DNA of 63,879 nt, filler included, from Octopus bimaculoides (GCF_001194135.2; 5 parts of 5 records of this genome joined end to end with filler, not necessarily neighbours in it); one strand, 5' to 3'; positions 1,061 to 63,081 are shown, counted from the first letter of the whole stretch. Notes: generated by a model from the letters alone, not told the origin. A program made the numbers and translations.

Positions 1061-1254
1061 AGATATGGCTGGTCTATAGGATTACCCTGGGTTTCATTTC
1101 CATAAAGTGCTTAGTTTTACAGTGTTTCTTCAAACCCTAGACCTATGGCTTCTCTAGCAACAGAGACCATAGGCCTAGGGTCTGAAGAAACACTGTAAAG
1201 CTAAGTGCTTTACAGACGTGAAACCCAGTGCAACTCCATAGACTGGCCATATCT
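1061..1254. mobile_element. Palindromic foldback element with a hammerhead-like motif in each arm (PLE pLTR-derived, non-autonomous)
   Basis: About 95-bp imperfect inverted arms. The + arm (1178-1237) has CTGAAGA...ctgtaaagc/gctttacag...GAAACCC. The - arm (1079-1137) has TTGAAGA...GAA-ACCC-A-GGGT-A-ATCC. Confidence 0.7.
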
Positions 1255-1468
1255 ATTTTTATCGATATACTTTATTGCTCTATAACTGCTTCTTTTTTGG
1301 ATTTATAATTTACCAACAATATATATACATACATATACCATTTACTAGTTATTCTTTTATGTACTTTATTGATTTTTAGAATAAGGTTTTTATGATAAAT
1401 TTATTTTCTAGAGGGTATGAATTACGTTCTTCATTATTGAATTATTTAATAGTAGTTTTTCTCTAAAT

Positions 1469-1499
<31 letters not shown>

Positions 1500-1657
1500 G
1501 GATGCTAAACAATGATGATGGTGATGTGCTCCCCACACCTCCAACCCCCACACCTTATTTTTCTAACCAGGGTCTACGCTAATATTCTTGTTACTTGTGA
1601 GTATACCCTAGCGCTACACCATCTCTTTTCTACTCTCTCTCACACTTTTGCTGTTTC

Positions 1658-1691
<34 letters not shown>

Positions 1692-2269
1692 NNNNNNNNN
1701 NCTCTCTCTCTCTCTCTCTCTCTCTTTCGCTTTTGTTGCTCTCTCTCTCCTCTTCTTTTTCCTCTGACTATGTAACCAAGTATCACCTTTACATCAGCAC
1801 ACTTGTTTCTGACCTCTTTCTGTACCTCTCTCTTACTTTCTATTTCCTCCCTCTCTCTTTCTCTCTCTCTCTCTCTCCACTAGTGTAGCTAGAGTGTGCA
1901 ACCCAGAGCGACCCTTCTGTTTGCTGCCCCTGGACCCCACAAAAAACACATATAATGCCTACTACAGACCCAAAAGTGGTGCCCCGTTCAAAGTGCTGCC
2001 TGGGGCGGACTGCCCCTACCGCCATCCTCCAGCTACGCTAGTGTCTCTCTCTCTCTCTCTCTCACTGGGTAACCATGTGCCTCCTCTATAGCAAGACACC
2101 TATTTCTGTTACACTCTAACCTTTCATCATTTGATACTGGATCACCTCCTTTAATGCCCCATCTCTAGTGGCAAGACACCTGCTTCTGTCTCTCTGTGTC
2201 TTTGTAACATTCTGATCTTAAGTTCCTCTCTGTGAATGCCCTGTCCCTCTCATAATTCCTTGTCTTGTG

Positions 2270-2580
2270 AGTTACTTGGTTACCCTACCTGTGCTGGTGC
2301 CACATTAAAAGCATCTAGTTGACATTGTAACACGGTTGGTGTTTAGAAGGGCATCAAGCTGTAAAAATCATGCCAAAACTAACCTTGCTTATGCTTGTGC
2401 CACATAAAATGTACTGAGTCCACTCTGCAGAGTGGTTGGTGTTAGGAAGGGCATCCAGCTGTAAAATAAACCCTGTCAAAACAGACACAGTAGCCCAGGG
2501 TAGTTTTTCTAACTGACTGGCTCCTGTCAACCATCCTACCCATGCATGCATGGAAGATGGACACTAAATGATGATGATAT
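2270..2580 (+). mobile_element. RTE-type 3' tail repeat (non-autonomous), duplicated internally
   Basis: ttggtgttaggaagggcatccagctgta...catgcatggaagatggacactaaatgatgatgat; the same tail recurs many times in the window. Confidence 0.7.
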
Positions 2581-2589
2581 ATATGTATA

Positions 2590-3125
2590 TTCCAGAAGAT
2601 GATATTTCAACACATTTTTGTATATGGTTACTGTGTGGATAGCTTATTTCTACTACTTTACATTCAAAGTGAAAATGGAAGAAAATGAGATACATTTTCA
2701 TCCTTTGGTGCAATTTTTTCTGAAAAGGAAAAAACACTATACAAACAGCAAAAAATATAAGTGCAATTTATTGAGATAGTGCCATAACTGAGAGGGCTGT
2801 TCATAAGTGGTTTGCAAGGTTTCAGAGTGAAAATTTTTATCTGGAAAATTGTAAAACATTTCAGCAGACATACAGTTGTTGATGATGACCAAATTAAAAT
2901 GCTAATCAAACATAATCCAAATTAAAAGATATGAGACATTGCTGAGATACTCTGTATACCTCATATGTGTATTATAAGGTATTTAAAACACTTGGATACA
3001 TGAATTGCTATGATATTTGGGTGTTTCATGATTTAATGGAAAAAAAATTAACTGAATTGAAAAAATTATAACTGTGGAGTGAAAAAGATCCCACAAAAAA
3101 TTAAATGAACCACCTTTAATCATTC
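2590..3125 (+). mobile_element. Mariner transposase N-terminal remnant (HTH region)
   Basis: From ATG at 2675: MEENEIHF...ITERAVHKWFARFQ...VVDDDQIKMLI...DIWVFHDL (WVPHEL-like), with stops. Confidence 0.75.
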
Positions 3126-3217
3126 CAAAAACTTGTGTGTATCACGCACTTCTCATGAGGAATTTCGGAAGAAGCTTCGTGAGACCATTGCTGAGACGCT
3201 TCCGAAAAAAGAAAAGT

Positions 3218-3350
3218 CATTGGAAAACAGATTATAGCAGCGACTCCATCTAGGAATATCTGAAGAAGGAATTGTATTCTGAAATATCATCGGACTATAG
3301 ATAACTAAATTACAACAGGTATATAGTCCATTTTTGTACCATTGAAAACT
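3218..3350 (+). mobile_element. Hammerhead-bearing repeat, same family as 8463-8857; degenerate HHR at 3255-3292
   Basis: cattggaaaa...tagcag.gactc...aatatCTGAAGAaggaattgtattctGAAatat aligns with 8641-8790. Confidence 0.65.
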
Positions 3351-3944
3351 TTTTGTTCTGATCTAAATAGTGTTTTAAAATTTCTTCTTAAAATCAGTAT
3401 GCACTTTTGTTCAACCCANNNNNNNNNNNNNNNNNNNNNNNNNNNNNNNNNNNNNNNNNNNNNNNNNNNNNNNNNNNNNNNNNNNNNNNNNNNNNNNNNN
3501 NNNNNNNNNNNNNNNNNNNNNNNNNNNNNNNNNNNNNNNNNNNNNNNNNNNNNNNNNNNNNNNNNNNNNNNNNNNNNNNNNNNNNNNNNNNNNNNNNNNN
3601 NNNNNNNNNNNNNNNNNNNNNNNNNNNNNNNNNNNNNNNNNNNNNNNNNNNNNNNNNNNNNNNNNNNNNNNNNNNNNNNNNNNNNNNNNNNNNNNNNNNN
3701 NNNNNNNNNNNNNNNNNNNNNNNNNNNNNNNNNNNNNNNNNNNNNNNNNNNNNNNNNNNNNNNNNNNNNNNNNNNNNNNNNNNNNGCTATAACAATGACT
3801 ACAGAAATATGGAATGCATCACCACGTTTGTTTCTACTTACTTTTGACTAGTCTCTACCAAGATATTTAGGTAACTTTTCCCTGCCCTTTTAATAATGAG
3901 ATGAAATACAGTTACCGACCATATAGTTATGCTTCTTTCACCAT

Positions 3945-4190
3945 AGTGTGAAGGTGTGTGACTTAGGGGTTAGGGTGTTAGGCTCACAATTGTAAGGTCA
4001 TAAGTTCAATTCCCAGCAGCTCATTACGTCCTTGAGCAATACACTTTATTTAACATTACTCCAGTTCACTCAGCTGGCAAAAATGAGTAGCACCTAGTGC
4101 TCAGCCACCTGTACATTAATTTCACGAGCAGGCTGTTCTGTTGATCGGATCAACTGGAAACCTTGCCGTCGTAATCAACTGTGTGCCAGT
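3945..4190 (+). mobile_element. tRNA-derived SINE (V/Meta-like central domain)
   Basis: A/B-box-like head (gttcaattccc); ttgagcaatacact...ttcactcagctggcaaaaatgagta; related copy at 50536. Confidence 0.6.
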
Positions 4191-4589
4191 TATTTCACCA
4201 TATTTAAAGACAAGTTTTAGAAGTTTCAATTCTTTTTTTTTTTTGAGACATTGGGAATTGTCTCCCCCTTTTTCAGTTATCACAAGCATTCCTAGCACTG
4301 CATTAGCATTCACCCCATTTTGCTTTCTCTCACCGTAGAAGAGTTTGATTGAGTGTAATACAGTTTCATTTTGAGGGAATGGGTCCTTGATCTTTGCTAT
4401 ATAATGCAGCGGTTCTCAAACTGACTCACTTCTTTGCACCAAACTGTTAGGAAAATATTTTGGGGCCTCATTTTATTCACAAAAAAAAAAAAACAACAAT
4501 AGAATTTGTCTTTATATATTTTTTCCTTCTTTGCTATGGTATTGCATGTAAATTTTAAATGCTTCAAATGATTTTAACGTTTTTTAACA

Positions 4590-6133
4590 TGACAATTTGT
4601 CTGCCCTTTTCTCAATCATAATAAAACCTGACTTGATGAGAACAACACCACTATCAATGATCTACTAACCAAGAAGAACAAGATATTTAGAGAGTGGCAG
4701 AATAACCAGAGCTCCACCTGCAAGAAGGACAGATTCAAATCCTTCCAGGCTCTCTCTCTCTCTCTCAAAGAGAAATCTGCACAAAGCACAATTCATGGTG
4801 GAGTAAAAGGGCAGATGAGGTTCAGTTCTACAATGCCATCAAGCCTGTCTTTGGTCCCTCAAAACCAAGTATAGCCTCTCTGTTATTGGCAGGTGGATAC
4901 TCATTCATCAAAGACAAACAGGGCATTAACAACAGATGGAAAGAATACTTCAGCTAACTTGTGGACAAACCCTTCTCTGTCAATCAGTCAGCACCTCATC
5001 AGATCTCCCAGAGTTCAGAACACGAGCACCTCAATGAACTGTCTTCCTTGTCTGAGGTCAAATCCCCCATAAAGCAGATGAATTGTGGCAAAGCATCCAG
5101 AAGGATGGCATTCCCAGAGAGTGTACAAAACTCTTGACAAAGAGTCCTTCAAAGTATTCTAGGATGATCTGATCAGTATCTGAGAACAGGGAGAAATGCC
5201 ACCTGATCTTCAGGCTACTGCAATAGTTTCCCCTCTATAAGAACAAAGGCTCATGATCAAACTGCAGGAACTACTAAGGTATCTCCCTACTCTCCATCAC
5301 CAGCAAAATTCTAGCCCATCTCATCCTTAATAGACTTATTTCAACATTATCCAAAAAAGGTCTTCCTGAATCACTATGCAAATTCCAACCTGAAGGTAGC
5401 ACCATAGATGTGATCTTCACAGTTAGACAAATGCCTAGAACAGAACATAAATTTGAATTTTGTTTTCATCAATCTGACAAAGGCATTTGATATGGTCGAC
5501 GGATAAACCCCGTGGATTATTCTCAAAAAGTTGGGCTGCCCATCAAAATTTATTAACTTCATAGTCTCTTCTATGACAACATGACTGGAGAGATGCTCTT
5601 GGCTGATGAATCTGGTGAGAAGTTCAACATCATCAATAGTGTTAAACAAGGCTGTATGCTTGAACCAGTACTCTTTAATCTCTTCTTCAACCAAGTTCAA
5701 CTACATGCTATCAAAGACCTAAATCTGGACATCAAATACTGTCTGAATGAATCACTTTTTAATCTGGGTTGCCCTACAGCCCACACAAAACCTTTTAGAA
5801 GCTCATCGTAGAAGTGTTCTTTGTAGATGGCCATACCCTCATGGTACAGCAAGAAAACTGCCTTCAGAGCATTGAGAGAGCCAATGCTGCATCCAGGTAG
5901 TTCAGTTTGACAATCAGCTTCAGTAACACAGAGGGCCTCCTTCAAATTTCACCTAACAGCAACCTGCTACAGCAATGCATTATCATCAATGACTCACGAC
6001 TATTTTCAAATACCTGAGGAACACCATCTCCAGTGATGGTACTCTTGACAGAGAAATCATGTCCAGAACCCAGAAAGCAAGTTAGGCACTGGAAGGCTAT
6101 GGATCAAAGTTCTGCAGTACAAAGACATTCACT
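4590..6133 (+). mobile_element. Decayed RTE (BovB-like) LINE reverse transcriptase
   Basis: GISLLSITSKILA..ILNRL, FVFINLTKAFDMV and NSVKQGCMLEPVLFNLFF motifs, with stops and frameshifts. Confidence 0.85.
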
Positions 6134-6460
6134 TCAGAATTTCTGGAACCACTGTTGACACTGGCTTATGCTTATTGTCCAATCCCCATATACTGCTTCA
6201 ATATTCCTTGCATTTTCTGTTGCATTGTTGCCTTTATTGAACTCATAAAGCAAAATATGCTCCTTTGTCACTTTCATTATAGCTTTGAAACAATGGCTGT
6301 TAAAATCGAACTGCACTCTTCAAAACTTGCACTAAGAATAAGTACAAGGTAAAATTACTCCCTGCTTTTATAGCAAGTTGATGCAGGTAGTTTATCCCAT
6401 TCCCCTCTGACTTTTAGTTCATGCAATTGAAAAAACCGCATTATTTATGGGATGACCTAA
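6134..6460 (-). mobile_element. Mariner fragment with TIR, inserted at the end of the RTE remnant
   Basis: ORF EHILLYEFNKGNNATENARNIEAVYG...CQQWFQKF; TIR-like ttaggtcatcccataaataatgcgg on the - strand. Confidence 0.75.
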
Positions 6461-6480
6461 TACACACACATACATATATA

Positions 6481-6633
6481 ATGGGCTTCTTTCAGTTTCT
6501 ATCTACCAGATCCACTTACAAGACTTTGGTTGACCCAAGACTGTATTAGAAGATACTTGCCCAAGTTGCTGCTCAGGAGAACTGAACCTTAGACTAGCTT
6601 CTCAACCACACAGCCACACAGCCTGCACCTATA
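6481..6633 (-). mobile_element. tRNA-derived CORE-type SINE, partial
   Basis: Reverse complement of the recurrent ggctgtgtgg...cttgggcaagt...gtggatttggtaga..gaaactgaaagaagccc SINE. Confidence 0.7.
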
Positions 6634-6720
6634 GATATATATATATATATTCTCTAAGATTCAGTCCAAGGACTGCGGCCATGCTGGAGTACCACCATTT
6701 ATATTGCTATACTTTCACTA

Positions 6721-7990
6721 AACCTCATCTGATACATCACATTTGGTGGATGAGCAAGTTTGATGTTGCTGGCCTCATCTGTGTTTCTTGCCCAGAGGTA
6801 GCTTCATCCGGAACTCTTGACAGAACGAGATTTAGTTTTGTTTCGAAAAAGCCTACATTTATGTCATGTAGGTCTCTCAGGCTTTGTGGGAAGATACTGA
6901 AGAGCTGTGGGCCTTTGAAGCCCAAACTGTTGCAGTATTTGATCCTGTATCCTGATGGCCATGTTGGGATCTTTGGTACCATGCAGTAGTGCCCCATCCT
7001 GCTGTTTGTGTGATTGACAATGCCAAAGTTTGGAACAAGATTTTCTGGGGTTTTCCAGATGTATATTACTGCATATGTTTCCTGCCTTCACTCCAGGAAG
7101 GAGAGTCTTAACTCTTTCAGTCTCTCCCAGTAGGTAATATGTTACATTGTATTGATCTTCCTTGTGTAGCTTCGCTGGATCACCTCAAATTCCATCATTA
7201 ATTTTACAGTTTGATGACCACAGTTGGGAGCAGTAATCCAGATGGCTGAGAACAAAAGTCCTCATTACTCATGTCAATACTCAGGTCACACACTGATTTT
7301 GATTCAGGGATTGGAATCCCTCCTGAGCCAGTATATCCTATCTGCTTTTCATTGAGCTTCCTGTGTTGGTAGCACAGGGCTTGGAATTTTCCAGCATTAA
7401 ACTGCATGTTATTTTCCTCAGCCTACCTGTATATTGCATCTAACTCTTGTTGCAGATGCACAACATCTTCAGCGTTCTGTATCTTCTGAGAGGCTTTTGT
7501 ATCATCTGCATAGCTAGCAAGGGTGGTTACTTGAGCAGCTGAGGGCATGTCAGAGAGGGCCACTATGAATAGCAGTGACCTCAAGACAGTGCCCTATGGA
7601 ACACCACTCATTATTTGTGTTTTCTTGGAGGTGGCTCCATTGACCACCACTACCTGACTTCTATCTTTTAGAAAGTCATGTAGCCATTCTGCAAGTTTTC
7701 CAAATATGTCAAGATTTTGGAGCTATGGTCAATTTGTCAAAAGCTTTGGCAAAGTCAAAGAATATCACGTCCACATTTGAGTTTTTGAGCAGCTGCTTTA
7801 GCACCTAGTTGTAATACTGCAAGAGCTGTGTCAAGCAGCTTCTACCTGGTCGAAAACCATGCTAGGTGTCAGTCATTTTCTTCAAGGAGTGCAATTAATT
7901 TCCTTCGGTCTATTCATTCCATGACTTTGCTGACATGTGAAGTCAAAGAGATAGCTCTATAGTTTTTATCATCTGTTTTGCTTCCTCCTT
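6721..7990 (-). mobile_element. CR1/L2-like LINE RT and 3' end, decayed
   Basis: FDFAKAFDK, QGTVL.SLLF, SYADDTK, MQFNAGKFQ and NSLGFKGPQLF...VPDE motifs on the - strand. Confidence 0.85.
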
Positions 7991-8462
7991 TATGGAGAGG
8001 GCATATTATCCCCATCTTTAGTTTGTCCAGGAGCTTATATATATAATATTTACTCATAGCCAAATCTGTATGAGTTGCTATTCAGAGATTTTCACTCTTA
8101 ATTTTCAGATGAGTGATGTTTTGGGTCTTGAAGCTTTCTTGTATATAGACCAATTGAATCTGCTCAGGCACTACCAAAATCTTTGCAAGAATTACTTGAT
8201 CTCCATGACAATGTGTAAAGAAAATTGTGAAAAACTGTTTACATCTAAGCATGTTCAGAATTTTATATGGAACATTATAGGAAAAGTAATTTTCTATACA
8301 TAGAATTTTGACAAATTCTGCAAAGTTCAAGTAAGTTGTCTTTCACCTTTTATCGCTTAATTGCTCCAGCCATTGGACTGCAGTCATGCTGGGGCATCAC
8401 CTTGATGAAACTTTAATTGAATGAATTGACCCCAGTACTTTTTTTTTAACCAGGTACTTATT

Positions 8463-8857
8463 AAACAATAATAATAAATAGTAATTGTGTGTTCTGAATG
8501 GCACAACAATGCACTATAATAACTGGTGTAATTTAATCATCCATAGTCTGATATAATATTTCGGAATATAAAAATTCCTTCCTTCTTCAGATATACCTAG
8601 GGACTGATCAAGTCACTACTACAATTGATTTTCCAAAAGCCATTGGAAAATCAATTGTAGCAGTGACTCAATCAATCCCTAGGGATATCTGAAGAAGGAA
8701 TTTTTATATTCCAAAATATTATATCAGACTATGGAAAATTAAATTACACCAGTTATTATAGTGCATTGTTGTTCCATTCAAAACACATTATTACTATTTA
8801 TTATAATTGTTTACAAACAATACACAATGCTTCAAGCAAACTACAATACTCTCCTAT
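8463..8857. mobile_element. Palindromic hammerhead-bearing element (inverted pLTR-like pair)
   Basis: About 170-bp inverted arms (8462-8635 and 8643-8813) plus a unique tail; HHR motif in both arms. Confidence 0.8.
8550..8594 (-). ncRNA. Minimal type-I hammerhead ribozyme with intact core
   Basis: atat-CTGAAGA-aggaaggaa-tttttata-ttcc-GAA-ATAT-T-atatc: stem I ATAT/ATAT, stem II GGAA/TTCC, palindromic stem III, AUU site. Confidence 0.7.
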
Positions 8858-10294
8858 CAGGTACTTATTCTATTGGTCTCTTTTGCCAAACTGCTAAGTT
8901 ATGGGGGATGTAAACACAGCAACACTGGTTGTCAAGCAGTGGTGGAGACAAACACACACACACATACAACAGGCTTCTTTCAGTTTCCATCTACCAAATC
9001 CTCTCACAAAACTTTGGTCAACCTAAGGCTATAGCATAAGACACTTCCCAAGGTGCCACGCAGTGGGACTGAACCTGGAATTATGTGTTTGGGAAGCAAA
9101 CTTTTTATCACACAGCCTTACCTGTGTCTAAGTTAAGGAAACTTTTGAAGAATTTCTGACAATTTTATAATTTTTTTCTTTTCCTTAATTGAATAGTACA
9201 TATTTTGTACGACTATCTTTATTATCATCTGTGAATCATATGCAAACATTGACAATATTATGTAAATCTATTTTAACAGAGACTTTGTTCTATCCAGGGT
9301 TGAATGAAAATGAAGTAAAAGGTATTTCTTTTAGGAAAACTGTGAGATTGAATTTTTATTTTATTTAAAACCAAACAACAGAAAATCTTTATTACATAAA
9401 AGAATTAAATTTTATTATATTTGTAAATATATTTACAAATCAAAAAATAAAATGTGTGAAAATATAGAATTACATTTTAAAAAATTTGTTAGTTTTAGAG
9501 AGAGAGAGAGAAGGAGAGAGAGAAGGAGAGAGAGAGTTAGAGAGTGAGTGAAATTAGTATTGCTGTTTTAGTTTTGAGTTGCTGCATGCTAATATTACAA
9601 AAAGGATAGTAGTTCCATATAGATACAATACCAGTAGACACAGACCTGGCTGTGTAGGGCAAAAATCTGCTTCACAAACACATCATTTGACTGTGAATGA
9701 AAGTGAGTAAATTGAGACTGTGCAGAAGCCCATCAGATAGATCATATTTGTTCTTAATCTCTCTTCCAAATAAAATACCACCATCTGGCTGTTAGGTAGG
9801 TACCTTCAGCAGTATTCACAAAGTTGTGATGCATTTGCATCGGGTCTCCAGTCTTTGGATGAATTGAACCTGAATTGTCCTGAACTTCCCTTTTCTTCCA
9901 TGCATCTCAGGGATCATGCAAGAGGTCAAGAAATTTTTTGGAGTACATCATAAAAAAAATTAAAGAAGAACTGCAATTTATAACTAATTATACTGAAAGT
10001 CTTCTGGAAATTCCACTATATATATATTTAATTAAGATTCCTTTGAATTAGGAACTTAAATTGAGGCACCTTGCTAGGTTAATATAATCTGCACACCCAA
10101 ACAATATTAATTGAATATTGAATATCAAGACTCTGTGCAGGAGTGTTTGCACTTGATATTCCTGCTGTGTGTGCAGACACTGCAACCCAGCTGAGTAAAG
10201 AGATCCGCACTTGGTAGTTCAGACATGTACTTTATATAAAGATACTTTCTATAGTATTTCCAAAGTGCAAATTCCAAGGTAGGTGAATTAAATA

Positions 10295-10379
10295 TAAATG
10301 AGTTACGAAGATGTACAGGTATCAATTCATTATAGTGTCAAACAGTAATGGATTGACACCTGTACATCTTCATTACTCA

Positions 10380-10383
<4 letters not shown>
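10295..10383. repeat. 89-bp near-perfect hairpin (38-bp arms, 13-nt loop)
   Basis: taaatgagttacgaagatgtacaggtatcaattcatta / taatggattgacacctgtacatcttcattactcattta. Confidence 0.8.
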
Positions 10384-10456
<73 letters not shown>

Positions 10457-10479
10457 AAAGAGAGAAAAGGATAAAGAGA

Positions 10480-13192
10480 ACAATGGCAAAGTTAGAAATA
10501 TATTTTATGGATAAAGTCTTACAGCTGTTTCAGGGAAAATCCAATGTATTCCTTCATCGGAGACAGTAATAGTAGAGGAATGGATTATTACATCTATAAG
10601 AGGAGAGTTGTAGTAGGAAGTGAGAGTGATGCGCTGAAAAAAGAACAAAGAAGAAACAGTACTTGGAGTGTAGCTTCATTCCAGTAGTAAACATCCATGT
10701 AAATAATCCTTGTGGGCATTTTCCGGAGATAATTGTAGTAGCAAAGGTGTATATATGTCATATCGTGTCCGGAGTATACTGTGAGTTGTTTACTCAAAGG
10801 ATAGCCTAAATCAAGTGAGAGATGTGTGTAGGGTAAAGAGGTCAAGCCTTAAGACAGGAAGGAAAGGGGAGAAGGAAGTAATTCAAGTGAGGAATAGTAG
10901 TGAGCAGTTGTATGGTCAGTTATTCTGACAAGACAAATAATAAGTATAGGGAGTAAAGGAAGAATGAGGGGGTGGAGGCATAAGTTTAGTAAGGAAGAAG
11001 GAATGTGAGGAGGTAATGTGGAGAGGTATTTATATGTGTATATTGTCAGGCTACAAGTGGTGAGGGTGTAGGTGACATTCTAAAAACAGTATTAAAGGAA
11101 AATAGAAGAGAATAGAATTAGTAGTAATATGTTCTAAAAAAAGAGCTAAACCTAATTTCAAGATGGTAGAATGGGAATCAGATGCTACCTGGAGTTGATT
11201 GTGGTTATCAATAGGGAGCCTGCAAGTGGTGGTGGTGTTAGTGGCAAGGAAGTATAAAGGAAGTAAAATAGGAAAAAATATATTTAGTAGTGATAGGATC
11301 ATAAAATGAAATAAATCTATTCTAAAGATGGTAGAAGGGGGATCAGTTTGCTAGGTTGAATAGGTTGCCTATAGGGAGTTGTGTGATAATGTTGTGTGGT
11401 CATTTGTGCATTTGTGTCTGTGATAGAATTTAAATGTATGGAAAAAACGGTGATTGCAGGTGCTAAGTGCTTCGTTATATCGATTAAGTAGAATGGGAGA
11501 ATTGTATTTTAAAATATGGAACACCTCCTTTAAGCAAAGCTTGCAATTAGAGCGCTGGCCCTGGTATGGAATTCCAGAGTCCAGGATAGAACATTTTAAA
11601 GTATACTGGGTATTTGTGTTTTTAAGGTGGTGAATGTGGTTGGCTAGTGTTGTAGATTTACTGTGTTTGTCATATCTAAAAGAGTGCAAATGGGCTGCAT
11701 AGCGTTGCTTGAAGGTTTTAGTTGAACCTATGTATGCAGCTGTAGAGTTATGTAGCAGATTCGTTACAGTGCACTTATATATTACGTTATATCTTACGCA
11801 ATGCGTTTGTAGCAGGCAGATTGTCCCGGAGCGACAGTTATAAGTAGATGTGACTTGGGGGTTGGGCTCTGTGGTGGATGAGGCATTATTGTTGGAGGAT
11901 ATGTTATGTGAGGATGTAGAAGAATCTAGATCAATGGAATTATTGTTATAGTTATTTATCCCTCTATTGTTATTATTATAGGATATGGTATTAAAGATTT
12001 CGTTGGAAGAGGATAGATCAGATATGCAGGTTGAAATACCCATGACTATGTTATCGAAAGTAGATCTGTGGTGATTAGAGTGAACATTGAGGCATTTTAG
12101 GTATTGGTTAGGTTTATGATAGGGGGAATATTGTGAGCTTGATAGGTTTAGAGTAACGTCTAGAAAGTTAGCCGTTTTATATGCGTTTTCAAATGTGATG
12201 GATAGATTCAGATTAGAGAAGAATTTGTGTAGATCCTTTTTAGTCCTTTCCAGAGAAGATTTATTAATAGCCTTGGTAAGTAATAAGGCATCATCCTTAT
12301 ATAGACCTCCGCGGATATTAGGGAAATGTGAGCGCAGTTAGTGAAGTATATATAATCCAACTAAATCAGTGGCCTGAGCGGAATCAGAAGATCCCATGGT
12401 TATATCAAATAAGTTGTTAGAGTTATTACTATGTTGGTTAGCTCAGCACCAGAGTTTGTTTTCGAAGGATATAAGAGTTTTGCGTGCATTGAGTATAATG
12501 TTAATTTCCAGAGGGGTTATGCTAGTAAGATTCCTAGCAAAAAGAATAGCCTTATTTAGAAGTTTAGGAGAGATAGAGGAGTAATAGTTGTTAATATCAA
12601 ATTGAAGGAATGAGAAAGAGTTTTTGTTATCCAAGGTGTGGAACTATGCAATAACCTCCCCAGTGTGGTACCATAGATTAGTGTTTAATTTCTCTTTGAC
12701 AACAGGTATTATCTTGTCCAGAATATTTTTGCTGATTCTTCCGAGGTCGGATTTGGTAGGGCATATTAGGCGTATAGATGGTTTTGTGATGAAATCCTTC
12801 TTATGATCCTTGAGGTTGAAGTGTGGAGGTGCAGGGCAGTATGGTCCTGTTCTGTCATCCACATGTAGTTTCCTCATGAGTTTGCAGTGGCTGGTGTTGA
12901 CGTCATTTAAAGCAGATGTTGATGCTAGCTTGTAGGATCTGTTGAGCTCGTTTCTAATGAATTTAATGTACTCCTCTATGGTGATGGGATACAGATTTCC
13001 TGTTTTATCAGAAAATATGTGTAATTTAAGGGGGAATTAGTAATTCTTTTTATGGTATGTGATAGTCTTTTTTGAAAGGGAGATTTGAATTTAGAGAATT
13101 TAATATTTTTGATTAAATCTATCATATCCGCTTCAAATTTTTCAAGATGTGGATTGTGTGGAGGATTGTTATACGATGTGAGGTTGAATTTG
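10480..13192 (-). mobile_element. Penelope-like retroelement (RT plus C-terminal GIY-YIG), decayed; 5' end lost in gap
   Basis: RT: IRLICPTKSDLGRISK, FDINNYYSSI, FDITMGS.D.AQATDLVGLYIL, GLYKDDAL, NFLDVTLNL. Endonuclease: CNCR...NVIYKCTV...AYIGST..FKQRY..HLHSF...CKLCLKE. Several stops. Confidence 0.9.
10516..10564 (-). ncRNA. Minimal hammerhead ribozyme in the PLE 3' pLTR (U4C variant)
   Basis: gtct-CCGATGA-aggaa..ttccct-GAA-ACAGCTGT-A-agac: stem I GTCT/AGAC, palindromic stem III, GUA site. Confidence 0.75.
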
Positions 13193-14135
13193 NNNNNNNN
13201 NNNNNNNNNNNNNNNNNNNNNNNNNNNNNNNNNNNNNNNNNNNNNNNNNNNNNNNNNNNNNNNNNNNNNNNNNNNNNNNNNNNNNNNNNNNNNNNNNNNN
13301 NNNNNNNNNNNNNNNNNNNNNNNNNNNNNNNNNNNNNNNNNNNNNNNNNNNNNNNNNNNNNNNNNNNNNNNNNNNNNNNNNNNNNNNNNNNNNNNNNNNN
13401 NNNNNNNNNNNNNNNNNNNNNNNNNNNNNNNNNNNNNNNNNNNNNNNNNNNNNNNNNNNNNNNNNNNNNNNNNNNNNNNNNNNNNNNNNNNNNNNNNNNN
13501 NNNNNNNNNNNNNNNNNNNNNNNNNNNNNNNNNNNNNNNNNNNNNNNNNNNNNNNNNNNNNNNNNNNNNNNNNNNNNNNNNNNNNNNNNNNNNNNNNNNN
13601 NNNNNNNNNNNNNNNNNNNNNNNNNNNNNNNNNNNNNNNNNNNNNNNNNNNNNNNNNNNNNNNNNNNNNNNNNNNNNNNNNNNNNNNNNNNNNNNNNNNN
13701 NNNNNNNNNNNNNNNNNNNNNNNNNNNNNNNNNNNNNNNNNNNNNNNNNNNNNNNNNNNNNNNNNNNNNNNNNNNNNNNNNNNNNNNNNNNNNNNNNNNN
13801 NNNNNNNNNNNNNNNNNNNNNNNNNNNNNNNNNNNNNNNNNNNNNNNNNNNNNNNNNNNNNATCTTCTTTCCCCACTAATAACAGGTAAGGTATATATAT
13901 TTTTTTAAAATATGTTTAAATAATTTATAATTAATTCTAGTGTCCTTTTATTCTTATTGCATGTTATAGTAGGCTTTAAAATGCTTATATTATTAGATTA
14001 GTATTTTGGATATAATTTTCTATGTGTACTCCAGTAAATAAGGTTATCTTGAAATTGAAGTTGGGGTCCTATTGGTAAAATCCCAAATTTTTAATAATAA
14101 TAATATTATATATATATATATAATTGCTTTCTTAA

Positions 14136-15022: not shown

Positions 15023-15277
15023 GAGTCTAAGGAGAGTCACTACACCAATATTAATGCACTGGTTCAATTCCACTCCTTTATTATTAGTCAATTAATTAAA
15101 TATCCATACAACTAACTAATCGATTGTTTGTGTAACTTGTTGATTAAACAGTCATACAAGTTAAGGAAATTAGATGGATAATTAGTTGGATATTTAACCA
15201 ATCGACTAATAATAAAGGAGTGGAATTGAACTGGTACATGTGTCATTAATATTGGCGTAATGACTATCCTTAGACTC
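15023..15277. mobile_element. Foldback/MITE hairpin element
   Basis: About 90-bp inverted arms gagtctaagga..gtca.tac.ccaatattaatg...gttcaattccactcctttattattagtc. Confidence 0.75.
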
Positions 15278-16513: not shown

Positions 16514-16720
16514 CATATGTTAAATGAATTCTTTTATTTCCAACATATGTTTCGAAGATTACAAATATATTCGGTTAAAATGTCTTACGGTTAAGCTGGT
16601 TCCTATGTATTTCCCTGAAGAGAAGATTACATCCTTATCAACATCACCTATTCCTATGGAAGGTATAATTTATAATCTTCAAAACATATGTTGGAAATAA
16701 AAGAATTCATTTAACATATG
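16514..16720. mobile_element. Inverted-pLTR-like element with hammerhead motif at 16608-16699 (+)
   Basis: 53-bp terminal inverted arms; tatttcc-CTGAAGA-gaagatta...taatcttc-(A)AA-ACATATGT-T-ggaaata. Confidence 0.7.
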
Positions 16721-17009: not shown

Positions 17010-17517
17010 TATAAATTAGAACTGGAAAACAAAACAATTAATTGAACAATTAAATAATTTAATCATTTAATCATTAAAAGATAAATTCAATTCAATTTAA
17101 TTATTTTATACAAACAAATGACACAGCTCATAAATTACAGCTGTTTCCACTCGATTAATAAAAAACAAGTTTTTCAAGAATAATAAAATATCATTTAAAT
17201 ATAATGAGGTTTCATCAGATTGACATATCTTGTTAAATATCTCATGAAAAATAGCAACTGAAAATTTTCTATAACTGCTAATGCTTTTTGAGAGCAAGCT
17301 TAATCATAAATAAATAATCTAACTGAAATTTTGTAACTTCCTAAATTTAAATCTATTAGTATCTAGTTCCAATAAATGATTTTGTTGTGTAATACACACT
17401 TTCATATAGACATATCTATATATATTTATATATACACAGGTATACCTATCCATTTATGTATATATACATACACATACACATACATACATGCATATTCACA
17501 TACACAAGTTTACATAT

Positions 17518-17740: not shown

Positions 17741-17960
17741 TAAGCAATATGCATACATATACAGTTCCATACACACATGTATATATATTTATGGTAAAAC
17801 ATTATTTTACATATTAATTCAAATCTAAATAAAAGAATTTATAATATATGTATAAACATGTATGAATGTATGTATGCGTACGTTTGTATGTATATGTATT
17901 TGCATATATGTGTGTGTCCATGTGTATACGTTATATATGTATATATATATGTATATGTAT

Positions 17961-20486: not shown

Positions 20487-20518
<32 letters not shown>

Positions 20519-20519
20519 A

Positions 20520-21070: not shown

Positions 21071-21091
21071 TATGATGATATATGATGATAT

Positions 21092-41534: not shown

Positions 41535-41579
<45 letters not shown>

Positions 41580-41640: not shown

Positions 41641-41675
41641 GTTTCTGAAGGAAGAGTATTGCTTGAACGTTAAAC
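41641..41675 (+). ncRNA. Degenerate minimal hammerhead motif
   Basis: gttt-CTGAAGGA-agag-tattg-ctt-GAA-CGT-T-aaac: stem I GTTT/AAAC; core carries indels. Confidence 0.45.
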
Positions 41676-44915: not shown

Positions 44916-45229
44916 TAAATACACAATCGAAAGAGCTACTAATAGTTTCATGCTTTTATGATACTTGAACAAACATGTTTATAAAATACACTATGTATAC
45001 AGAGCTGGCGATGCTCTCCAATTCACTGTTACTACTTTTACAGTCGCACATCTATAGTCTTTAAAAACCCTGATAGCCATGTTTTTTCCTTATTTTCTTA
45101 ATGTAACGCAAAAAAAGAGAGCCTGAAATATTGTTGTAAGATACATGGCATATTTTATAAAAATGCCTGTTCAAGTATCATAAAAGCATGAAACTATTAG
45201 TAGCTCTTTTGGTTGTGTATTTAAATTGA
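44910..45229. mobile_element. Inverted-pLTR-like element with degenerate hammerhead at 45118-45207 (+)
   Basis: About 95-bp inverted arms; agagc-CTGAAATA...agcat-GAA-ACTA-T-TAGT-A-gctct. Confidence 0.6.
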
Positions 45230-45353
45230 TATTCATATCTCACTAGATGGAGCACTTGTTTGTTGATTCTACCTCTATTGGATCTGTAAACTATACATAC
45301 ATACATATATATATGTGTGTGTGCATATATATATGTGTGTGTGCATATATATA

Positions 45354-45401
<48 letters not shown>

Positions 45402-47769
45402 AAGTGAACAAGGGCACTAATCAGCACCAGTATTGCTAGAAATAAGAGTCAGAATAACTCAACAAAAGCACTATCTTAATGAGCTGACAAGGGAGATAAG
45501 CTCCCTATGGTCGCAGATACAGCCAGATCATCGATGATTTCACACTCTGATGCTTAATGCATCTTAATGCTCATCAATGGCTATTACCACGCTAAGGGTT
45601 AAACCCATCTCGCCTTGTCAGTTTATAAGATTTCCGTTGAGATCGTACGCTGGTTTCAAAACAGTAAAAGTGAAAATTATAAATAATATGGGTGACTAAT
45701 TCGCACAACACAATACAATATGCACAGTTTCCAACATTCATGTAAAGTGACTTCATAACGCTTTTGCAAGCATCTTTGAAATTAAGATGGGGTCGTGCCT
45801 ATGTTGTCTGAACGAACGCCAAGTCACCATAAAGCAGGCTTTTTGGGATATTCCCTTGTGACATGCAGCGTACATGGCAATGAAGCAATATAGGAGTGTC
45901 CTGTCCAAAGCGCAGGCCTCAGTAGGGTTTGTTAGGTACCTCTGTTCTAGATTTTCCCTCAGGGTTTACTCCCGAAACTTTTCCAAGAAGTGGGTATTGC
46001 TGCAAGATAGTAGAGCTTTGACGCTAGAGTTTTCCTTCTCTAGAATCATTGTCTTACCAAGTTGACGAGTTCCATCCACTTGAAGCGCTCATTTTAAGAT
46101 GCCAGTACTCACCTTAGCCCTTTCTCCTGTCAGTACAAACAGTTTCACTAGACTTAAATTCCAAACAGCACAAGAAAGCCAGGAGTTGGACTTGGTTGTC
46201 AGAATCTTGCTGTCAGAAGCATTACTAAGTGGAAGTTTATCCACGGTATCACTTCTTGGCTTGGAATTATATAAAGATGGACGAATAGCATTTAAATCCT
46301 ATATTGAATGAAATATGTGATATTTCCATTACTATATAGTATAAAAATCGATGGAAGACATTCAACAATGCAGTCAATCAACAATACCCGCGTTCCTTCA
46401 AGTATTGTAACTTAGGCTGGTAATTTGAGGAGTGTAGATAACGATAATGCCTTTTCCAGTTTTACACAAGATGTGTCTAAGAGAGGTAAGTGTGTAGTGC
46501 CGATAACGTTATTTACTGTTGAAAAGATATAACCAGAAACATAGAACTAAAAGTGTAAGTAGGATTTTTATCCGTTGAAACTTGGTATAATGTTAATATC
46601 TGGTCAAAGGAGGTAACTATACTGTACGGATAGATTTGATCTCTGACGAAGGGAGCTAACAATGTAGTGTAGAAAATGTAAGGGAGGTAACTAATGTAGT
46701 GTAAGTTGGTCTACGACCAGAGCTTATTTCTGCACACAATATTACTAGATTTGAACCCAACACTGCAGGCTGACAAAAATATGTAAATAGGATAACGTTA
46801 ATGAAATAAAAAATGTAGACAATTACAACAGCAACTAAAAGCATTCATCAGCGATGCAATGTTTCTTTTTATACTATCACCTAAATATGTTTTAACAATA
46901 ATACACCTTGATGAAGTGGGCAATTCATTACGTAATTTCGTCACAATTTACAATTTAGCTGTGTTTTTTTTTATATCCGTCAGTATTATTGGTATTTGAA
47001 TATGGATATTTCCGCAGCAGCAGATGTTTGTTAGTCTCTAACATGCAGCCAAATTACGTACAATTAAAAAAAATATTTCACTGAACAGAAACCAATATTG
47101 GTGTTCATTTGATTCAACATCTGTAGTTTGAATTCAACTGAGAAAAAATGGATCGGGAGAAAGTTCCAGGAGTAACTTAAACGACAAGCATATTGTTTAG
47201 TAAACTACATGTAGAGGGGAAATGGTAATAAAAAGAGAGGGTTTCACCATCTATCTTTTGGCCTTTGAGTACCTTGAACGAAGTTTATTTAACTGAAAAC
47301 ATTCATATCAAGTCACTGATTCGAAGACAGTATAGATTCTTGTTTCACTGTTTGCCATTCATAGTCATCAGCACAGATCGCCAGAACATAGACTGGAAAA
47401 CATTCTCATTGGTCGCCCAATCCAAATAATACGCTGCTCGAGCCCTTAGTTAACACCTAGGAAACAGGTGCATGATCCAGAATTTTCTTGTTTCGATCTG
47501 TAACTGATGCTCTTCCTCTGGACACACAACGTTTCAAAGGATCCAAACAAAGTTACTGACTTCCAAGTGGACTTGGCACGGGAATCTATTATGAATCTTG
47601 TTTCCATCTTCCTTAAATCAACGAAACTTTTCACATTCTCTTATCAAATATACATTTCTGGGCAGTATCGATCCTGGCTGTGTGTATGTATGCTTGCGTG
47701 TTTCTCAGTTTCTGTGTGTCCATGAGCGTGTTTGTGTGTATTTCAAGAAGCAAGGAGATTTCTTTCTCA

Positions 47770-49655: not shown

Positions 49656-49864
49656 CTCCAACAATAATTTTATTCAAGTGTTAATAAGCAAATGAATTTT
49701 ATATATAATTCTGATGGGTTGAGTTTGAGACCTCATCAATATACTATTGCATAAATTATGCCATAATATAACAATATTCATAAAATTGAATTTCAATGAA
49801 ACAATTGTAAATTATTGTAATAAAAGGACACACTCATTCTATTCTCCTTGCTTATAATTATTTA

Positions 49865-50535: not shown

Positions 50536-50790
50536 GGAGGCATGTGGCTTAGTGGTTCGAGTGTCAGCATCATGATCGTCAGATTGTGGTTTCGATTCCT
50601 GGACAGGGCAACACATTGTGTTCTTGAGCAATACACTTCATTTCATGTTGCTCTAGTCCACTCAGCTGACAAAAATGAGTAATGCTACAATGGACTGGCA
50701 TCCTGTCCAGCTGAGGAACACATATGCCATAGAAACCGGGAAACCAGGCCCATGAGCCTGGCTAGGCTTTAAAAGGGCGCATTTATTTTA
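50536..50790 (+). mobile_element. tRNA-derived SINE (V/Meta-like domain)
   Basis: A box TGGCTTAGTGG and B box GTTTCGATTCC; gtccactcagctg..aaaatgagta...atggactggcatcctgtccag. Confidence 0.7.
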
Positions 50791-51316: not shown

Positions 51317-51355
51317 GAGAAATTTGAAAAGACAACTCGAAACCGGTTATTTCTC
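51317..51355 (+). ncRNA. Minimal hammerhead motif with two core substitutions
   Basis: gagaaat-TTGAAAA-ga-caac-tc-GAA-ACCGGT-T-atttctc: 7-bp stem I, palindromic stem III, GUU site. Confidence 0.6.
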
Positions 51356-54523: not shown

Positions 54524-56030
54524 GAAATGTACAATAATAATAACAACCACAACAGCAACAGCAATAATAATAATAAGAAGAAAGATTTATATCATTAGCC
54601 AGAGGGGCATAGATGAGGGAAACATCACAAACACAGTCTACAGTTTGTGTGTGTGGTGGGGATTACATAAAAGACAGGGAAATGAAATAAAATAACCATA
54701 ATATACAAAGAATGTTAATATGAATGATATGGTCCTCCTGATATAAGGGAAACTCCAACTAGGATCACTCGAGGAACCTCATAGATCTAGGATTACCAGC
54801 ACCACCAAGGGCACAAGCCCTTACCCAACTGTTGCTCTCCAATCTACGAGTGTAAGCTTAGCGTAGTGCCATTGGTTTCCGATTTTGGCCCAGCAGATTT
54901 AAGAGTAAGGGTTAATCGATATCATCAACCCCAGTAATTAAATTGTTTCTTTATTGACCCTGGAAAGACGATGGGTAAAGTTGACATAAGTAGGGTTTGA
55001 ACTCAGAGCCAGAAGAGAAAGAAAGAATACAGCAGAGCATTTTGTCTGACGTACAAAGGGTTTGGCCAATCCACTTTTAATAGTACTTACTAATACAGGT
55101 ACAAACCCTGAGAGTCAAGGAAGTGGTTAGTCAATCCATACTTAGTTGAACAATAAAAATAAGATTACTCACGACTAATAATGTTAATCTCATAGAATGT
55201 AAGTTATTTAGAACCGTATCTAATGCGATAACATCTCTTAGATACACCATTATTTTTCAGTTTAGTTATGTACACCTCATCAACATCATCCCATGAAGTG
55301 CATTCCGCTATTCTGGTGCGTATAAATGCCTGTTAATAATTCATTCCTAAGAGTTGAGGATTTATGCCACCCAATCAGAACTAATTATGCTACAGAAATC
55401 AATTAAATTTGCTGTGTTTGGAAGAACAATAGAAAACTTACTTTCATATTAATGGTGAAGTGCTTTCCAGCAATATGAGAAAAAAAAAATTGATCTTCTC
55501 ACTATAGAACAAGGAAATATAATAATGTATAGTATTAAAATGTGATGGTCTTGCCTGAAGTCATACAGAAATGTAATAAACTGGTTTTAAAGAATTCATA
55601 AGGACTGTTTGTGTTAATAAAACCAAAAACAATTGAATTATTGGTAAGGTTGATAAACCCTGGGGTTCTCTGTTAATATAAACATGTTTAGACCACTTAG
55701 GTCTAAATTTAGCAAAGGCCTCTAAATTTAGGGGAGCGGATTAGTGTAGTCAAATATATCAGCCTGGTGCTTGAATGGTATTTTGTTTTAGTGACAAATA
55801 TATTAAATATAAAATGTTTTTATGTTTGTCTCAGCAGATTTTCTAATCAAACTGTCCAACCCATGCCAGCATGGAAAGCAGATGTTAAACAATGATGATG
55901 ATGATGAAGATGATGTCTCTACAGGTTTTCTCTCAAATTTAGAGCCAGCACTGAAAGTTGCTATGTTTTGTATATGAATACATCTATGTAAACAATGCAA
56001 TCAAAGATAGAAAAATAGGTAATGGGTGTA

Positions 56031-57463: not shown

Positions 57464-57639
57464 TACACATGTATGTATATATGTATGTATGGTGCAGGCT
57501 ACAGTCAAATCATCAAACCCATGCCAGCATGGAGGGCAGACAATAAATGATGAAGATGATGATGATGATATATAAATTTTTGACTGTTAGTTTTACATAA
57601 CAGGACCCAATGTTAATCTTTTGATGTGATGTGTGTGTG

Positions 57640-58485: not shown

Positions 58486-58611
58486 ATATATATATATATA
58501 TATATATAAGATTAGGTAGGGTATATATTGTACAGGTGTGAACTTGCTAGCCACCTTATTATTACTGTACATAACGGTAATAATACTACTTTATTTACAT
58601 TTTTCATATAT

Positions 58612-58742
58612 ATATCATCATCATCATCATCATTGTTTAACGTCCGCTTTCCATGCTAGCATGGGTTGGACGATTTGACTGAGGACTGGTGAAACCGGAT
58701 GGCAACACCAGGCTCCAGTCTGATTTGGCAGAGTTTCTACAG
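58612..58742 (-). mobile_element. RTE-type tail repeat running into a gap
   Basis: (atc)n-gtttaacgtccgctttccatgctagc. Confidence 0.8.
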
Positions 58743-60489: not shown

Positions 60490-60665
60490 ATACATACATA
60501 CATACATACATACATATACATGCATGCATACATACATACATATATACATACATACATACATACATACATACATACGTAAGTACATACATACATATATAAA
60601 TACATACATACATACATACATACATACATACATACATACATACATACATACATACATACATACAT
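60490..60665. repeat. (TACA)n microsatellite
   Basis: Direct. Confidence 0.95.
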
Positions 60666-61690
60666 AGGGTATTCGGAAAGTAATCATATATTTTGCAAGA
60701 GAAACACAACTGTCAGATCCTATAAGACCGCAAATTTATTTCGACTTTCAAAGAATTCCACATCTTTTGATGAAAGAAATGTTTCCAATACGTTTGTTTC
60801 TGAATTTAGATCCAACATTGAAATTCTTTAGGCATTAAAACATGTCATAATGGAAAAAACAATAAAGATACTAATAATTTTGTTGAAGTACTTCCTATGA
60901 TATCGATATTATTTTGCTCCAAGCTCCATTTTCTGATTAATTCCATCTCATGTTATACCGGAAATCGACAACACTTCTGGTGCACAAAGGACGGCCACTC
61001 TGCATATAACACTTCATTTACACACAGAAGTTACTGGCAATAAAATATTTGCAGTAGTTGTCGCCCCTTGTTTGAGTATCGGATAAGGATCAGCATTATC
61101 TGCTTCGTAATCCACAAACCGTATGAAGTATGAAGACTTGGTTGTTTAGTTAACATAGTTTTCTCATTTACAGATAACAAATGTCTGGTCTTTTTTTCTT
61201 ATTGCTTGCTGCACCACTTACATTCAAATTTTTTGTGATTTATGTTAAACCAAAAAGAAATTCTATGTTATTCTTAAGCAGCAGTCTCCAGCGAATGGGG
61301 AAACATCGATTGCGATTCTCCAGCGGGAGATTTTGAGGGAACTAAACACTCTCTTGCATTGTTTTCCAGTTCCTTTGAAATGTTACTGCACATCTGAAAA
61401 TGACACATTTTGTTTTTCAGTTTCTAGGCCAAATCTCTGGTATTTTACGAAGGATCTGATTCAAATGCTTCTCTCAAAATGTTCGAATTCGTACGTCTTC
61501 CAGAACTAATATTTTCTAGAACGAAGCAGACGAAACAATCATGAACGTTAGTCTTCATACATCAGAGTTAACAGCTTCCGTTAATCAACAAATCTTCCAC
61601 AAACGTTACATTTTTCCACGTTCTCCTGTTTCGAGATTTATGTAACACACAACAACAAATAAGAGGCTTCTGTAAATTATTCATGTTAAA
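60665..61690 (-). mobile_element. Very decayed Tc1/mariner-superfamily element
   Basis: SGRRTNSNILREAFESDP..NTRDLA and weak VN..N / PY..G.T.VT..Y..M similarity in broken frames. Confidence 0.4.
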
Positions 61691-61813
61691 GGCAAAATTA
61701 TATTATATATTATTAACGACACACTACGCAATGATAAACTATATATCTGTCTGTGAGTGCTTGGCTGTGTATGTGTATATATATATATATATATATACAT
61801 ACATACATACATG

Positions 61814-61860
<47 letters not shown>

Positions 61861-61920
61861 ATACATATATATATACATATATAAATACATATATGCATAT
61901 AAACACACATACACACACAC

Positions 61921-61978
<58 letters not shown>

Positions 61979-62613
61979 ACAGACAGACAAATAATTATAT
62001 TGTTTGATAGTTTCCCTGTCTGGTGAAATTGTTTATGTCTACCAACTTAGTGGTCCGTCAGATAGCTGAAAGAAATAATTTACTTAATATTTCTCGATGT
62101 TTCGAAATTCTTATGATGTAAACAACTTACTATAAATATATATGGAAAGAGACAGAGAGAGGAAGGGAAAGAGGGAATATACAGACAATTTGTATACATA
62201 TGTAAATAGGCGGCATATTATAAACAACGCAATTCACTTATCGTTGAATTCTGACAGAAAAACAAAAAAAGTTATTTTCATTAAATGAACGATTCGTATT
62301 ACAAACTAATGCCATTATTAATATTCAATATAGAATACAACATTAACAAACCAACAATACAAACAACATCAACATCAACCTAATAAGCACACCAGATTTC
62401 CTGGAATTTATATATAAACTATGTGTGTGTGAGTGTGTGTGTGTTTGTGTGTGTGTGTGTCTCTGTGTGTGTGTGTGTAGACTTATATACACAGAGGATT
62501 ATATCTACTGCTCTTTCTATGTATGTATAATATATATACACATATATATATATTATACACACATATACACGTATGTATATATATATATGCGATGTATATA
62601 TACATATATGTAC

Positions 62614-62648
<35 letters not shown>

Positions 62649-62754
62649 TATATNNNNNNNNNNNNNNNNNNNNNNNNNNNNNNNNNNNNNNNNNNNNTTA
62701 ATTAATTAANNNNNNNNNNNNNNNNNNNNNNNNNNNNNNNNNNNNNNNNNNNNT

Positions 62755-62925
62755 ATACCATACAGAAAATTGCACTACTGGGCACTGCACACATCCTACG
62801 CAAAACACTTTCAATACAGTAACCATAAGAGCATCACAGCAAACCACAGCACATACCCAAAGCGCACAGAGCTGCGCTCGGTAGTGAAGTGAAAGCACGT
62901 TATAAAAATAAAACTACTGAACAAT
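62755..62925 (+). mobile_element. Dong/R4 3' end
   Basis: YTIQKIALLGTAHILRKTLSIQ* plus UTR ending actgaac(aat)n. Confidence 0.85.
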
Positions 62926-63081
62926 AATAATAATAATAACATCGAAAAATACCTTAGGAATGAGAACCCAGGTTCGAAATTTTCCCCAAGACACCTGATG
63001 AAGGCTGGAGGGTATATCAGCCGAAGCATTGTGTTAACAACAAACAAGATGAGGACAAATATCCGTCAAATGTAAATAATG
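62926..63081 (+). mobile_element. (AAT)n plus hammerhead tail, same family as 28320-28512; HHR at 62990-63035
   Basis: acatcgaaaaataccttaggaatgagaacc...gacacCTGATGAaggctggagggtatatcagccGAAgcattgtgtt. Confidence 0.75.

Follow-up and report, generated by a model that had tools for sequence, protein, structure and literature searches.

We analyzed a 63,879-nt stretch of DNA from Octopus bimaculoides (GCF_001194135.2; five parts of five records joined end to end with filler; hereafter the window), in which an initial annotation had listed 13 miniature hammerhead ribozyme motifs. These motifs are minimal type-I hammerheads, most of them decayed, and probably mark where many separate insertions made by the machinery of Penelope-like elements (PLEs) have their 3′ ends. 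One family, named here after its ACGT stem III palindrome, is probably a tRNA-derived short interspersed nuclear element (SINE) relying on the same machinery. Repeats are plentiful in the window, which is gapped animal DNA and contains reverse transcriptase (RT) fragments of long interspersed nuclear element (LINE) and Gypsy type and many microsatellites. All 13 listed stretches were found in place, and each has a hammerhead-like layout.

The motifs are enriched over chance. A descriptor set prior to shuffling (no more than one mismatch in the core, at least 4 pairs in stem I and 2 in stem II, a palindromic stem III, and an NUH site) returns seven matches in the window, compared with 0.50 ± 0.75 in 100 block dinucleotide shuffles (maximum 4; 0 of 100 reach 7) and none in the reversed window. 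Four of the seven matches are listed motifs, and three are additional ones (22636, 45577, and 49711). The exact-core tier of this descriptor is weak when taken alone (one match; 6 of 100 shuffles reach 1), and bare CTGAnGA strings number 41 in the window versus 30.8 ± 5.4 in shuffled sequence (maximum 49). When the published U3-A8 variant is admitted among exact cores, only 8590(-) and 51324(+) qualify, and 2 of 300 shuffles reach this count. A second descriptor demanding C after A15.1 gave 14 half-motifs versus 3.7 and five full motifs versus 0.1 over 300 shuffles; it was devised post hoc and is not relied upon. Rfam reports no hammerhead among the 150 of 181 matches listed for the window, and none among five matches for 27850-28560.

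The enrichment is real (∼19 motifs in 60.8 kb, decayed ones counted), with some corrections to the listing. Only two of the 13, 8550-8594(-) and 51317-51355(+), are intact, and in each of the other 11 the core, a stem, or the cleavage site is defective. The 13 motifs correspond to 10 loci, and at least five further motifs had been missed. Several motifs have a longer stem II and stem III palindromes of 6-12 nt. Palindromic stem III sequences are reused across families and are not family-specific, contrary to the earlier assignment of one palindrome to each family. ACAGCTGT occurs at 879, 10560, and 17218 in motifs whose mutual likeness is near or at shuffle level (scores of 53, 52, and 29 versus shuffle maxima of 50, 66, and 46), and ACGT is present in two unrelated families (score 16 versus a shuffle mean of 16.8).

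Insertion anatomy and Penelope-like coding remnants

Five of the 10 loci are head-to-head inverted pairs, comprising three pairs in which both motifs had been listed and two listed singles (16608 and 45118), and the arms of these pairs diverge by roughly 10-25%. The clearest of them, in family B, has a 12-bp target duplication at its borders (8451-8462 and 8858-8869). Its arms span 8462-8637 and 8642-8813, and a 44-nt tail (8814-8857) follows one arm only; a shared 5′ end is not demonstrated among the three copies of this family. A one-sided tail is also found in the ACGT family (33 nt) and is not shown for families A, D, and G. A dinucleotide microsatellite lies within 200 nt downstream of 9 of 21 arms, versus 15.9% at random positions (binomial P 0.003, with the arms of a pair not being independent); the left arm of family A leads into a GA/TA/CA microsatellite. 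Inverted pairs are predicted by energy-based folding to form long hairpins with 72-90% of bases paired. The ribozymes of such a pair lie on opposite strands, and a dimer in cis is therefore impossible. Minimum-energy folds of monomers or dimers do not represent the catalytic fold, and dimer folding, being uninformative, was not used to judge cleavage. A direct tandem of any motif is absent from the window.

Other fold-backs are present as well. Those at 15023-15277 and 10289-10391 are of the size class of the hammerhead pairs, have no hammerhead match, and are not counted with these pairs; they are possibly ribozyme-less PLE-type insertions or miniature inverted-repeat transposable elements. 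A 640-bp near-perfect fold-back (90.7%) at 20503-21411 belongs to a frequent repeat family, which is also found at 17932-18432, 38624-38767, 39943-40560, 55844-55915, 57502-57577, and 58604-58742.

One listed motif neighbors a recognizable PLE. The decayed element at 10430-13197(-) has an open reading frame (ORF) that encodes an RT with a YxDD motif, a Cys-rich linker, a C-terminal GIY-YIG domain, and CCHH residues. This ORF contains frame breaks and an internal deletion, the 5′ part of the element enters an N gap, and the motif at 10516-10564 lies ∼800 nt behind the ORF on the same strand. The region matches P0002 with a tblastn E of 5e-96; P0002 itself has a weak group I intron endonuclease match (E 0.002) and no match in a PDB search, and the window peptide has no direct match in Pfam or NCBIfam. 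Judged by domain layout, the ORF is probably of the Neptune or Nematis type as laid out in PMC8557442. A second copy of this PLE 3′ end is not found in the window. The PLE connection drawn in the initial annotation is borne out by the insertion anatomy, by this neighboring RT-endonuclease ORF, and by the architecture of the motifs. Its further claim, that most motifs are non-coding passengers, finds positive support in the ACGT family only, by way of a tRNA-like head that the annotation does not mention, and is unproven for most families: the lack of an adjacent ORF does not imply a passenger family, because short 5′-truncated copies of autonomous PLEs would have the same appearance.

At 41578-42361, a (TA)n tract stands beside a decayed hammerhead and an endonuclease fragment; this could be a family whose hammerhead is antisense, or two insertions that lie side by side.

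The ACGT family and its tRNA-like head

The third window copy of the ACGT family lies within 62850-63330. To this segment we aligned two raw RNA runs, using ∼6% of each, together with two sets of DNA contigs, all from organisms A and B. At position 63026, A makes up 97.5 and 96.7% of DNA depth and 78.6 and 78.3% of RNA reads, and at position 63028, G makes up 76, 77, 66, and 63% in the four data sets; GAAA and the ACGT palindrome are thereby restored. With these majority letters the minimal hammerhead of the family is intact; its stems I and II are 5 bp each, and its palindrome is 4 nt. Within the motif, the remaining differences among those listed concern N7, which is a free position, loop II, and two CpG sites. 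The motif has an unpaired base ahead of stem II, a G10.1-C11.1 closing pair, and the palindrome, which are the hallmarks described for PLE hammerheads (PMC4209133).

The family is non-coding, ∼250-300 nt long, dispersed, and very abundant in both organisms. Summed contig depth in organism A is 5.7 million over the motif versus 51.6 on the flank, with a similar value over the motif in organism B; the depth ratio ranges from ∼3,500 to 110,000 with the way overlaps are counted, and is not a copy number. About 0.06% of RNA records align to the region, reads from the neighboring repeat included, with both strands equally represented. DNA contigs diverge into dissimilar flanks at 63080-63082, and 2135 and 1743 RNA reads extend into sequence matching the 33-nt tail at 27894-27926, which in the window is present on the inverted arm only; the family thus has two alternative 3′ ends. 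Four strand inversions are found among the 15 of 84 joints listed, one of them in both organisms, and one DNA contig of organism B returns from 63082 to 62954, giving a partial tandem. RNA ends do not pile up in the region in these ordinary cDNA runs, and no RNA circle joint is found among the 15 of 84 joints listed, although small circles could escape such libraries. Scans by exact pattern, either for the ACGT body or for its junction with the head, returned 0 loci in metagenome, viral, and prokaryote collections.

Two further features of the reads touch this family. Places with A>G plus T>C changes number 17 + 14 and 16 + 18 in the RNA runs and 6 + 9 and 9 + 9 in the DNA sets, with similar C>T and G>A counts, and several A>G changes seen in an RNA loose end before 62981 are missing from the DNA loose ends. 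This excess fits adenosine-to-inosine hyper-editing of fold-back or paired copies; the individuals differ, and one highly expressed locus could account for it. A short deletion at the cleavage site (63026-63029) is found in ∼15% of RNA reads versus 1.5% of DNA depth, and the copy at 27977 has a similar 3-nt deletion. It may reflect one highly expressed locus, or uncleavable copies enriched in stable RNA.

In the window, the start of each of the two arms at 27894-28514 lies no more than a few bases from that of a tRNA-like head, a segment of 75 nt whose A and B boxes are 45 nt apart; the order is head, (TAA)n, body. Of the four sites with A and B boxes in the window, three are ACGT heads. One of the three, the second head at 28248-28329, is 98.8% identical and probably a duplicate caused by an assembly overlap at a 10-N gap (28238-28247). 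A head without an ACGT body is not found in the window. A T4 run is missing inside both headed arms, as it is in 50% of shuffles, and is thus uninformative. The head-to-body junction is presumably common in octopus sequence entries. The head is probably a constant part of the family. The ACGT 3′ end consists of the hammerhead, an AC-rich stretch, and the optional tail, and has neither a LINE-derived end nor a simple-repeat tail; such a PLE-like 3′ end is not that of a standard LINE-dependent SINE. Tentatively, the family could be a very high-copy tRNA-derived SINE partnered by a PLE and not by a LINE, in which a polymerase III head is placed via (TAA)n on a PLE end that brings its hammerhead and internal start sites of reverse transcription.

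Further tRNA-like heads of SINE-like repeats are found at 3952-4023, 27291-27358, and 50543-50606 (23.0, 17.3, and 12.6 bits with the tRNA model described below). A broken Gypsy-type pol region at 28466-30707(-) ends within the start of its integrase, at precisely the point where the ACGT forward arm has its 3′ end.

Alternative explanations and a possible mechanism

Several observations weigh against PLE-made insertions and a SINE nature of the ACGT family. A target duplication of at least 8 bp is absent at three of the four hammerhead pairs tested (A, E, and G), the ACGT 3′ ends have no nearby microsatellite, and an autonomous PLE having the 3′ end of this family was not found. The endonuclease fragment at 41993-42361(-) lies ∼320 nt from the 41641(+) motif on the opposite strand, an arrangement that our model leaves unexplained. 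The tRNA-like head scores 12.2 bits (E 0.14) with a model built from eight phage tRNAs, ranking fourth of 20 behind three other tRNA-like segments, and is missed by both ARAGORN and Rfam; a phage BLAST search with the heads gave two tRNA-Gln matches, both with an E of 2, and none for the forward head. The link between head and body amounts to one insertion, since two of three bodies are headed yet stem from a single event, and the third follows the TAA tract of another repeat. In the loose ends upstream of the body, TAA runs give way to letters of low agreement (0.52-0.57), and the head is not visible there.

These last points would also be expected if all families, ACGT included, were truncated PLE ends or retrozyme-type monomers, the body being joined at (TAA)n and the head at 28149 being part of a one-off SINE chimera copied once as a unit. 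The microsatellites favored by PLEs (PMC8557442) fit this explanation too. We nevertheless consider it rather unlikely: both arms start at the first bases of the head, as expected of a polymerase III transcript, every head in the window is joined to an ACGT body, and the reads show TAA upstream of the body and not PLE coding or 3′-untranslated sequence.

Alternatively, the motifs could belong to retrozyme families that are non-autonomous but active, with tandem transcripts that cleave themselves in dimeric form, circularize, and reinsert. Such families would have the minimal type-I motifs and palindromic stem III that we observe, and retrozymes derive from PLE ends (bioRxiv 10.64898/2026.07.22.740005). 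The partial tandem contig of organism B would fit, and master tandem loci could lie outside the window. This strong form of the initial annotation's reading is nevertheless improbable, given the defects in 11 of 13 motifs, the lack of direct tandems in the window, and RNA reads with equal strands, no end pile-ups, and no circle joint among those listed. A very improbable explanation is that AT-rich repeat DNA yielded the motifs by chance and that faulty assembly yielded the inverted pairs. Bare cores do not clearly exceed shuffles, exact-core matches are few, the gapped assembly holds at least one overlap artefact (28238-28247), and the weak singles 41383 and 41641 could be chance, but full-structure matches are in clear excess, the family B target duplication is clean, independent reads restore the ACGT motif, and arms differing by 10-25% are not expected of an artefactual fold-back.

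For insertions made by PLE machinery, the following mechanism may be envisaged on the basis of PMC11167929 and PMC8557442. The PLE RT-endonuclease would nick AT-rich or (TA)n DNA. Reverse transcription would begin within the RNA, 50-120 nt beyond the hammerhead, at either of two sites, leaving an optional tail; copying would go back through the hammerhead and usually halt early, and a second copy off the other strand would produce the inverted arm. Hammerheads would be over-represented because they lie just upstream of the start site. Cutting would take place only as a dimer or with the aid of protein, in a tandem precursor RNA; the genomic copies are decaying. Transcripts of the ACGT family would be made by RNA polymerase III from the A and B boxes, would run on through (TAA)n, the body, the hammerhead, and the AC-rich start region, and would serve as templates in trans. 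Internal initiation would spare this RNA the need for a defined 3′ end. Cleavage would strip the head from the copied part, and the ACGT monomer would therefore have to remain uncut.

The features discussed are collected in Table 1. Open frames of 149-176 amino acids at 36825-38204(-) and 63306-63869 have no Pfam match and are probably transposon remnants.

Table 1. Hammerhead motifs and PLE-related features of the window (listed, named in the initial annotation; HMM, hidden Markov model; iE, independent E-value)
Feature	Position	Strand	Remarks
Unlisted minimal hammerhead, ACAGCTGT	802-883	-	Exact core, one stem I mismatch
Family A head-to-head inverted pair	1061-1254	both	79% self-inverted; motifs 1079-1137(-), C3>T and stem II decayed, and 1178-1237(+), stem III and cleavage site broken; defects at differing positions
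Family B single copy	3212-3349	+	Motif 3255-3292, stem I down to 2 bp
Family B insertion inside older SINE-like repeat	8451-8869	both	Motif 8550-8594(-) intact; 8684-8725(+) G12>A
Decayed PLE plus 3′ region	10430-13197	-	Motif 10516-10564 (U4>C); end at (TA)n
Family D inverted pair	16514-16720	both	Full motif 16608-16699(+), G12>A; inverted half-motif 16553(-) retaining GAAA
Unlisted hammerhead, ACAGCTGT	17133-17221	-	Core exact, stem II base decayed
Unlisted hammerhead, ACGATCGT	22523-22640	-	C3>G
ACGT family inverted arm	27894-28147	-	tRNA-like head, (TAA)n, body with 32-nt deletion, motif 27977-28020 (3 nt deleted at cleavage site), AC-rich 3′ part, 33-nt tail
ACGT family forward arm	28149-28514	+	tRNA-like head 28149-28222 (A and B boxes), (TAA)n, body, motif 28422-28467 (G12>A); tail absent
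Weak unlisted candidate	41378-41419	+	U3-A8 core, ACTAGT, stem II imperfect
Decayed listed motif	41641-41675	+	A9>G, one A missing; ∼60 nt past (TA)n tract
PLE remnant, broken GIY-YIG endonuclease fragment	41993-42361	-	HMM iE 6.8e-18
Family G inverted pair	44906-45233	both	Motif 45118-45207(+), G8>A and A9>T; inverted half-motif 44949(-)
Unlisted hammerhead, 12-nt stem III palindrome	45519-45584	-	C3>T
Unlisted hammerhead, ACAATTGT	49705-49815	+	A9>G
Listed motif, intact as U3-A8 variant	51317-51355	+	Stem I 7 bp, stem II 2 bp
ACGT family third copy	62921-63082	+	Short (TAA)n, body, motif 62990-63035 (A15.1>G); tail and tRNA-like head absent; adjoins piece of a different repeat also present at 26069-26173

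Relation to known systems and implications

Octopus SINEs include OK, OR1, and OR2. The hammerhead of the schistosome Sm-alpha and Sj-alpha repeats is canonical. Like the ACGT family, these repeats are short and non-coding and have a polymerase III promoter ahead of their hammerhead (PMC6765202). They differ in being tandem and in self-cleaving to free copies, and the available text of this review does not tie them to PLE machinery; the ACGT family has a minimal PLE-type motif together with PLE-type inversion and tail. tRNA-derived SINEs share with it an A/B-box head and the nature of a short non-autonomous retroelement (SINEBase, PMC3531059), but are defined as LINE-dependent and carry a terminal simple-repeat tail, whereas the simple repeat of the ACGT family is internal and its 3′ end PLE-like. 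The Helenus terminal-repeat retrotransposons in miniature (PMC10886601) likewise have a tRNA-like head and rely on long terminal repeat elements.

Minimal hammerheads of metazoan PLEs match the window motifs closely. Cervera and de la Pena (2014; PMC4209133) reported ∼2,000-9,000 minimal descriptor hits per metazoan genome, in many families, mostly solitary and with few inside full PLEs, and described opposite-strand pairs spaced 100-700 bp as well as the U3-A8 core variant. The window motifs share the minimal type-I form, the palindromic stem III, the many families, the solitary and opposite-strand paired occurrence, and the U3-A8 variant; the density in the window is not comparable with genome-wide descriptor counts, and a tRNA head is not described in the portions of that paper available to us. 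Giant squid has 235 Rfam hammerhead-1 hits (PMC6962438). Octopus vulgaris has 190 PLE families with 6.83% coverage and 1279 unclassified SINE families, the supplement being silent on hammerheads (PMC13282606). Given this PLE richness and the counts in PMC4209133, a genome of this kind should hold a dense set of many families. The multi-family ribozyme mobilome put forward in the initial annotation is present as a pattern, but is not new, a multi-family and mostly solitary pattern having been described in PMC4209133.

Neptune and Nematis PLEs and the anole Poseidon PLE resemble the window in their C-terminal GIY-YIG domain with Cys-rich linker, a hammerhead near the 3′ end, an inverted 5′-truncated copy, an optional tail (30-40 bp), and a microsatellite bias (PMC8557442, PMC11167929). 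In the anole element, initiation is internal, at two sites bounding the tail, the hammerhead is protein-assisted and dispensable for insertion in vitro, and RNA-seq likewise shows no ends at the cut site (PMC11167929). Unlike in these elements, the window ORF is broken, and the ACGT family lacks an ORF and has a tRNA-like head. Animal non-LTR (long terminal repeat) retrozymes (PMC7229834; bioRxiv 10.64898/2026.07.22.740005) are similarly non-coding, with type-I hammerheads derived from PLE ends. They are defined by tandem repeats and circular RNA; the window has no head-to-tail tandem, the joints listed include no RNA circle joint, and a tRNA-derived head is unreported in the available portions of these sources. 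In the literature surveyed, we found no description of a tRNA-headed SINE mobilized by PLEs or of octopus PLE hammerheads; repeat databases were outside this comparison, and the family may therefore carry another label there. The multi-family hammerhead set is real but largely known; one family in it, ACGT, credibly represents a new variant.

The hammerhead set as first described is the expected debris of a PLE-rich genome. The purpose of the PLE hammerhead is left open by PMC8557442 and PMC11167929, and a SINE nature of the ACGT family would bear on it: as cleavage would harm a monomeric polymerase III RNA, retention versus loss of the core over many copies would discriminate a catalytic from a protein-binding or neutral role. 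If true, this reading would define a distinct class of small-RNA-derived mobile element and extend the SINE concept to a third retroelement class. It would also provide a natural minimal substrate of ∼100-140 nt for a PLE protein acting in trans, and ACGT fold-back insertions may be one source of the hyper-edited double-stranded RNA of these animals.

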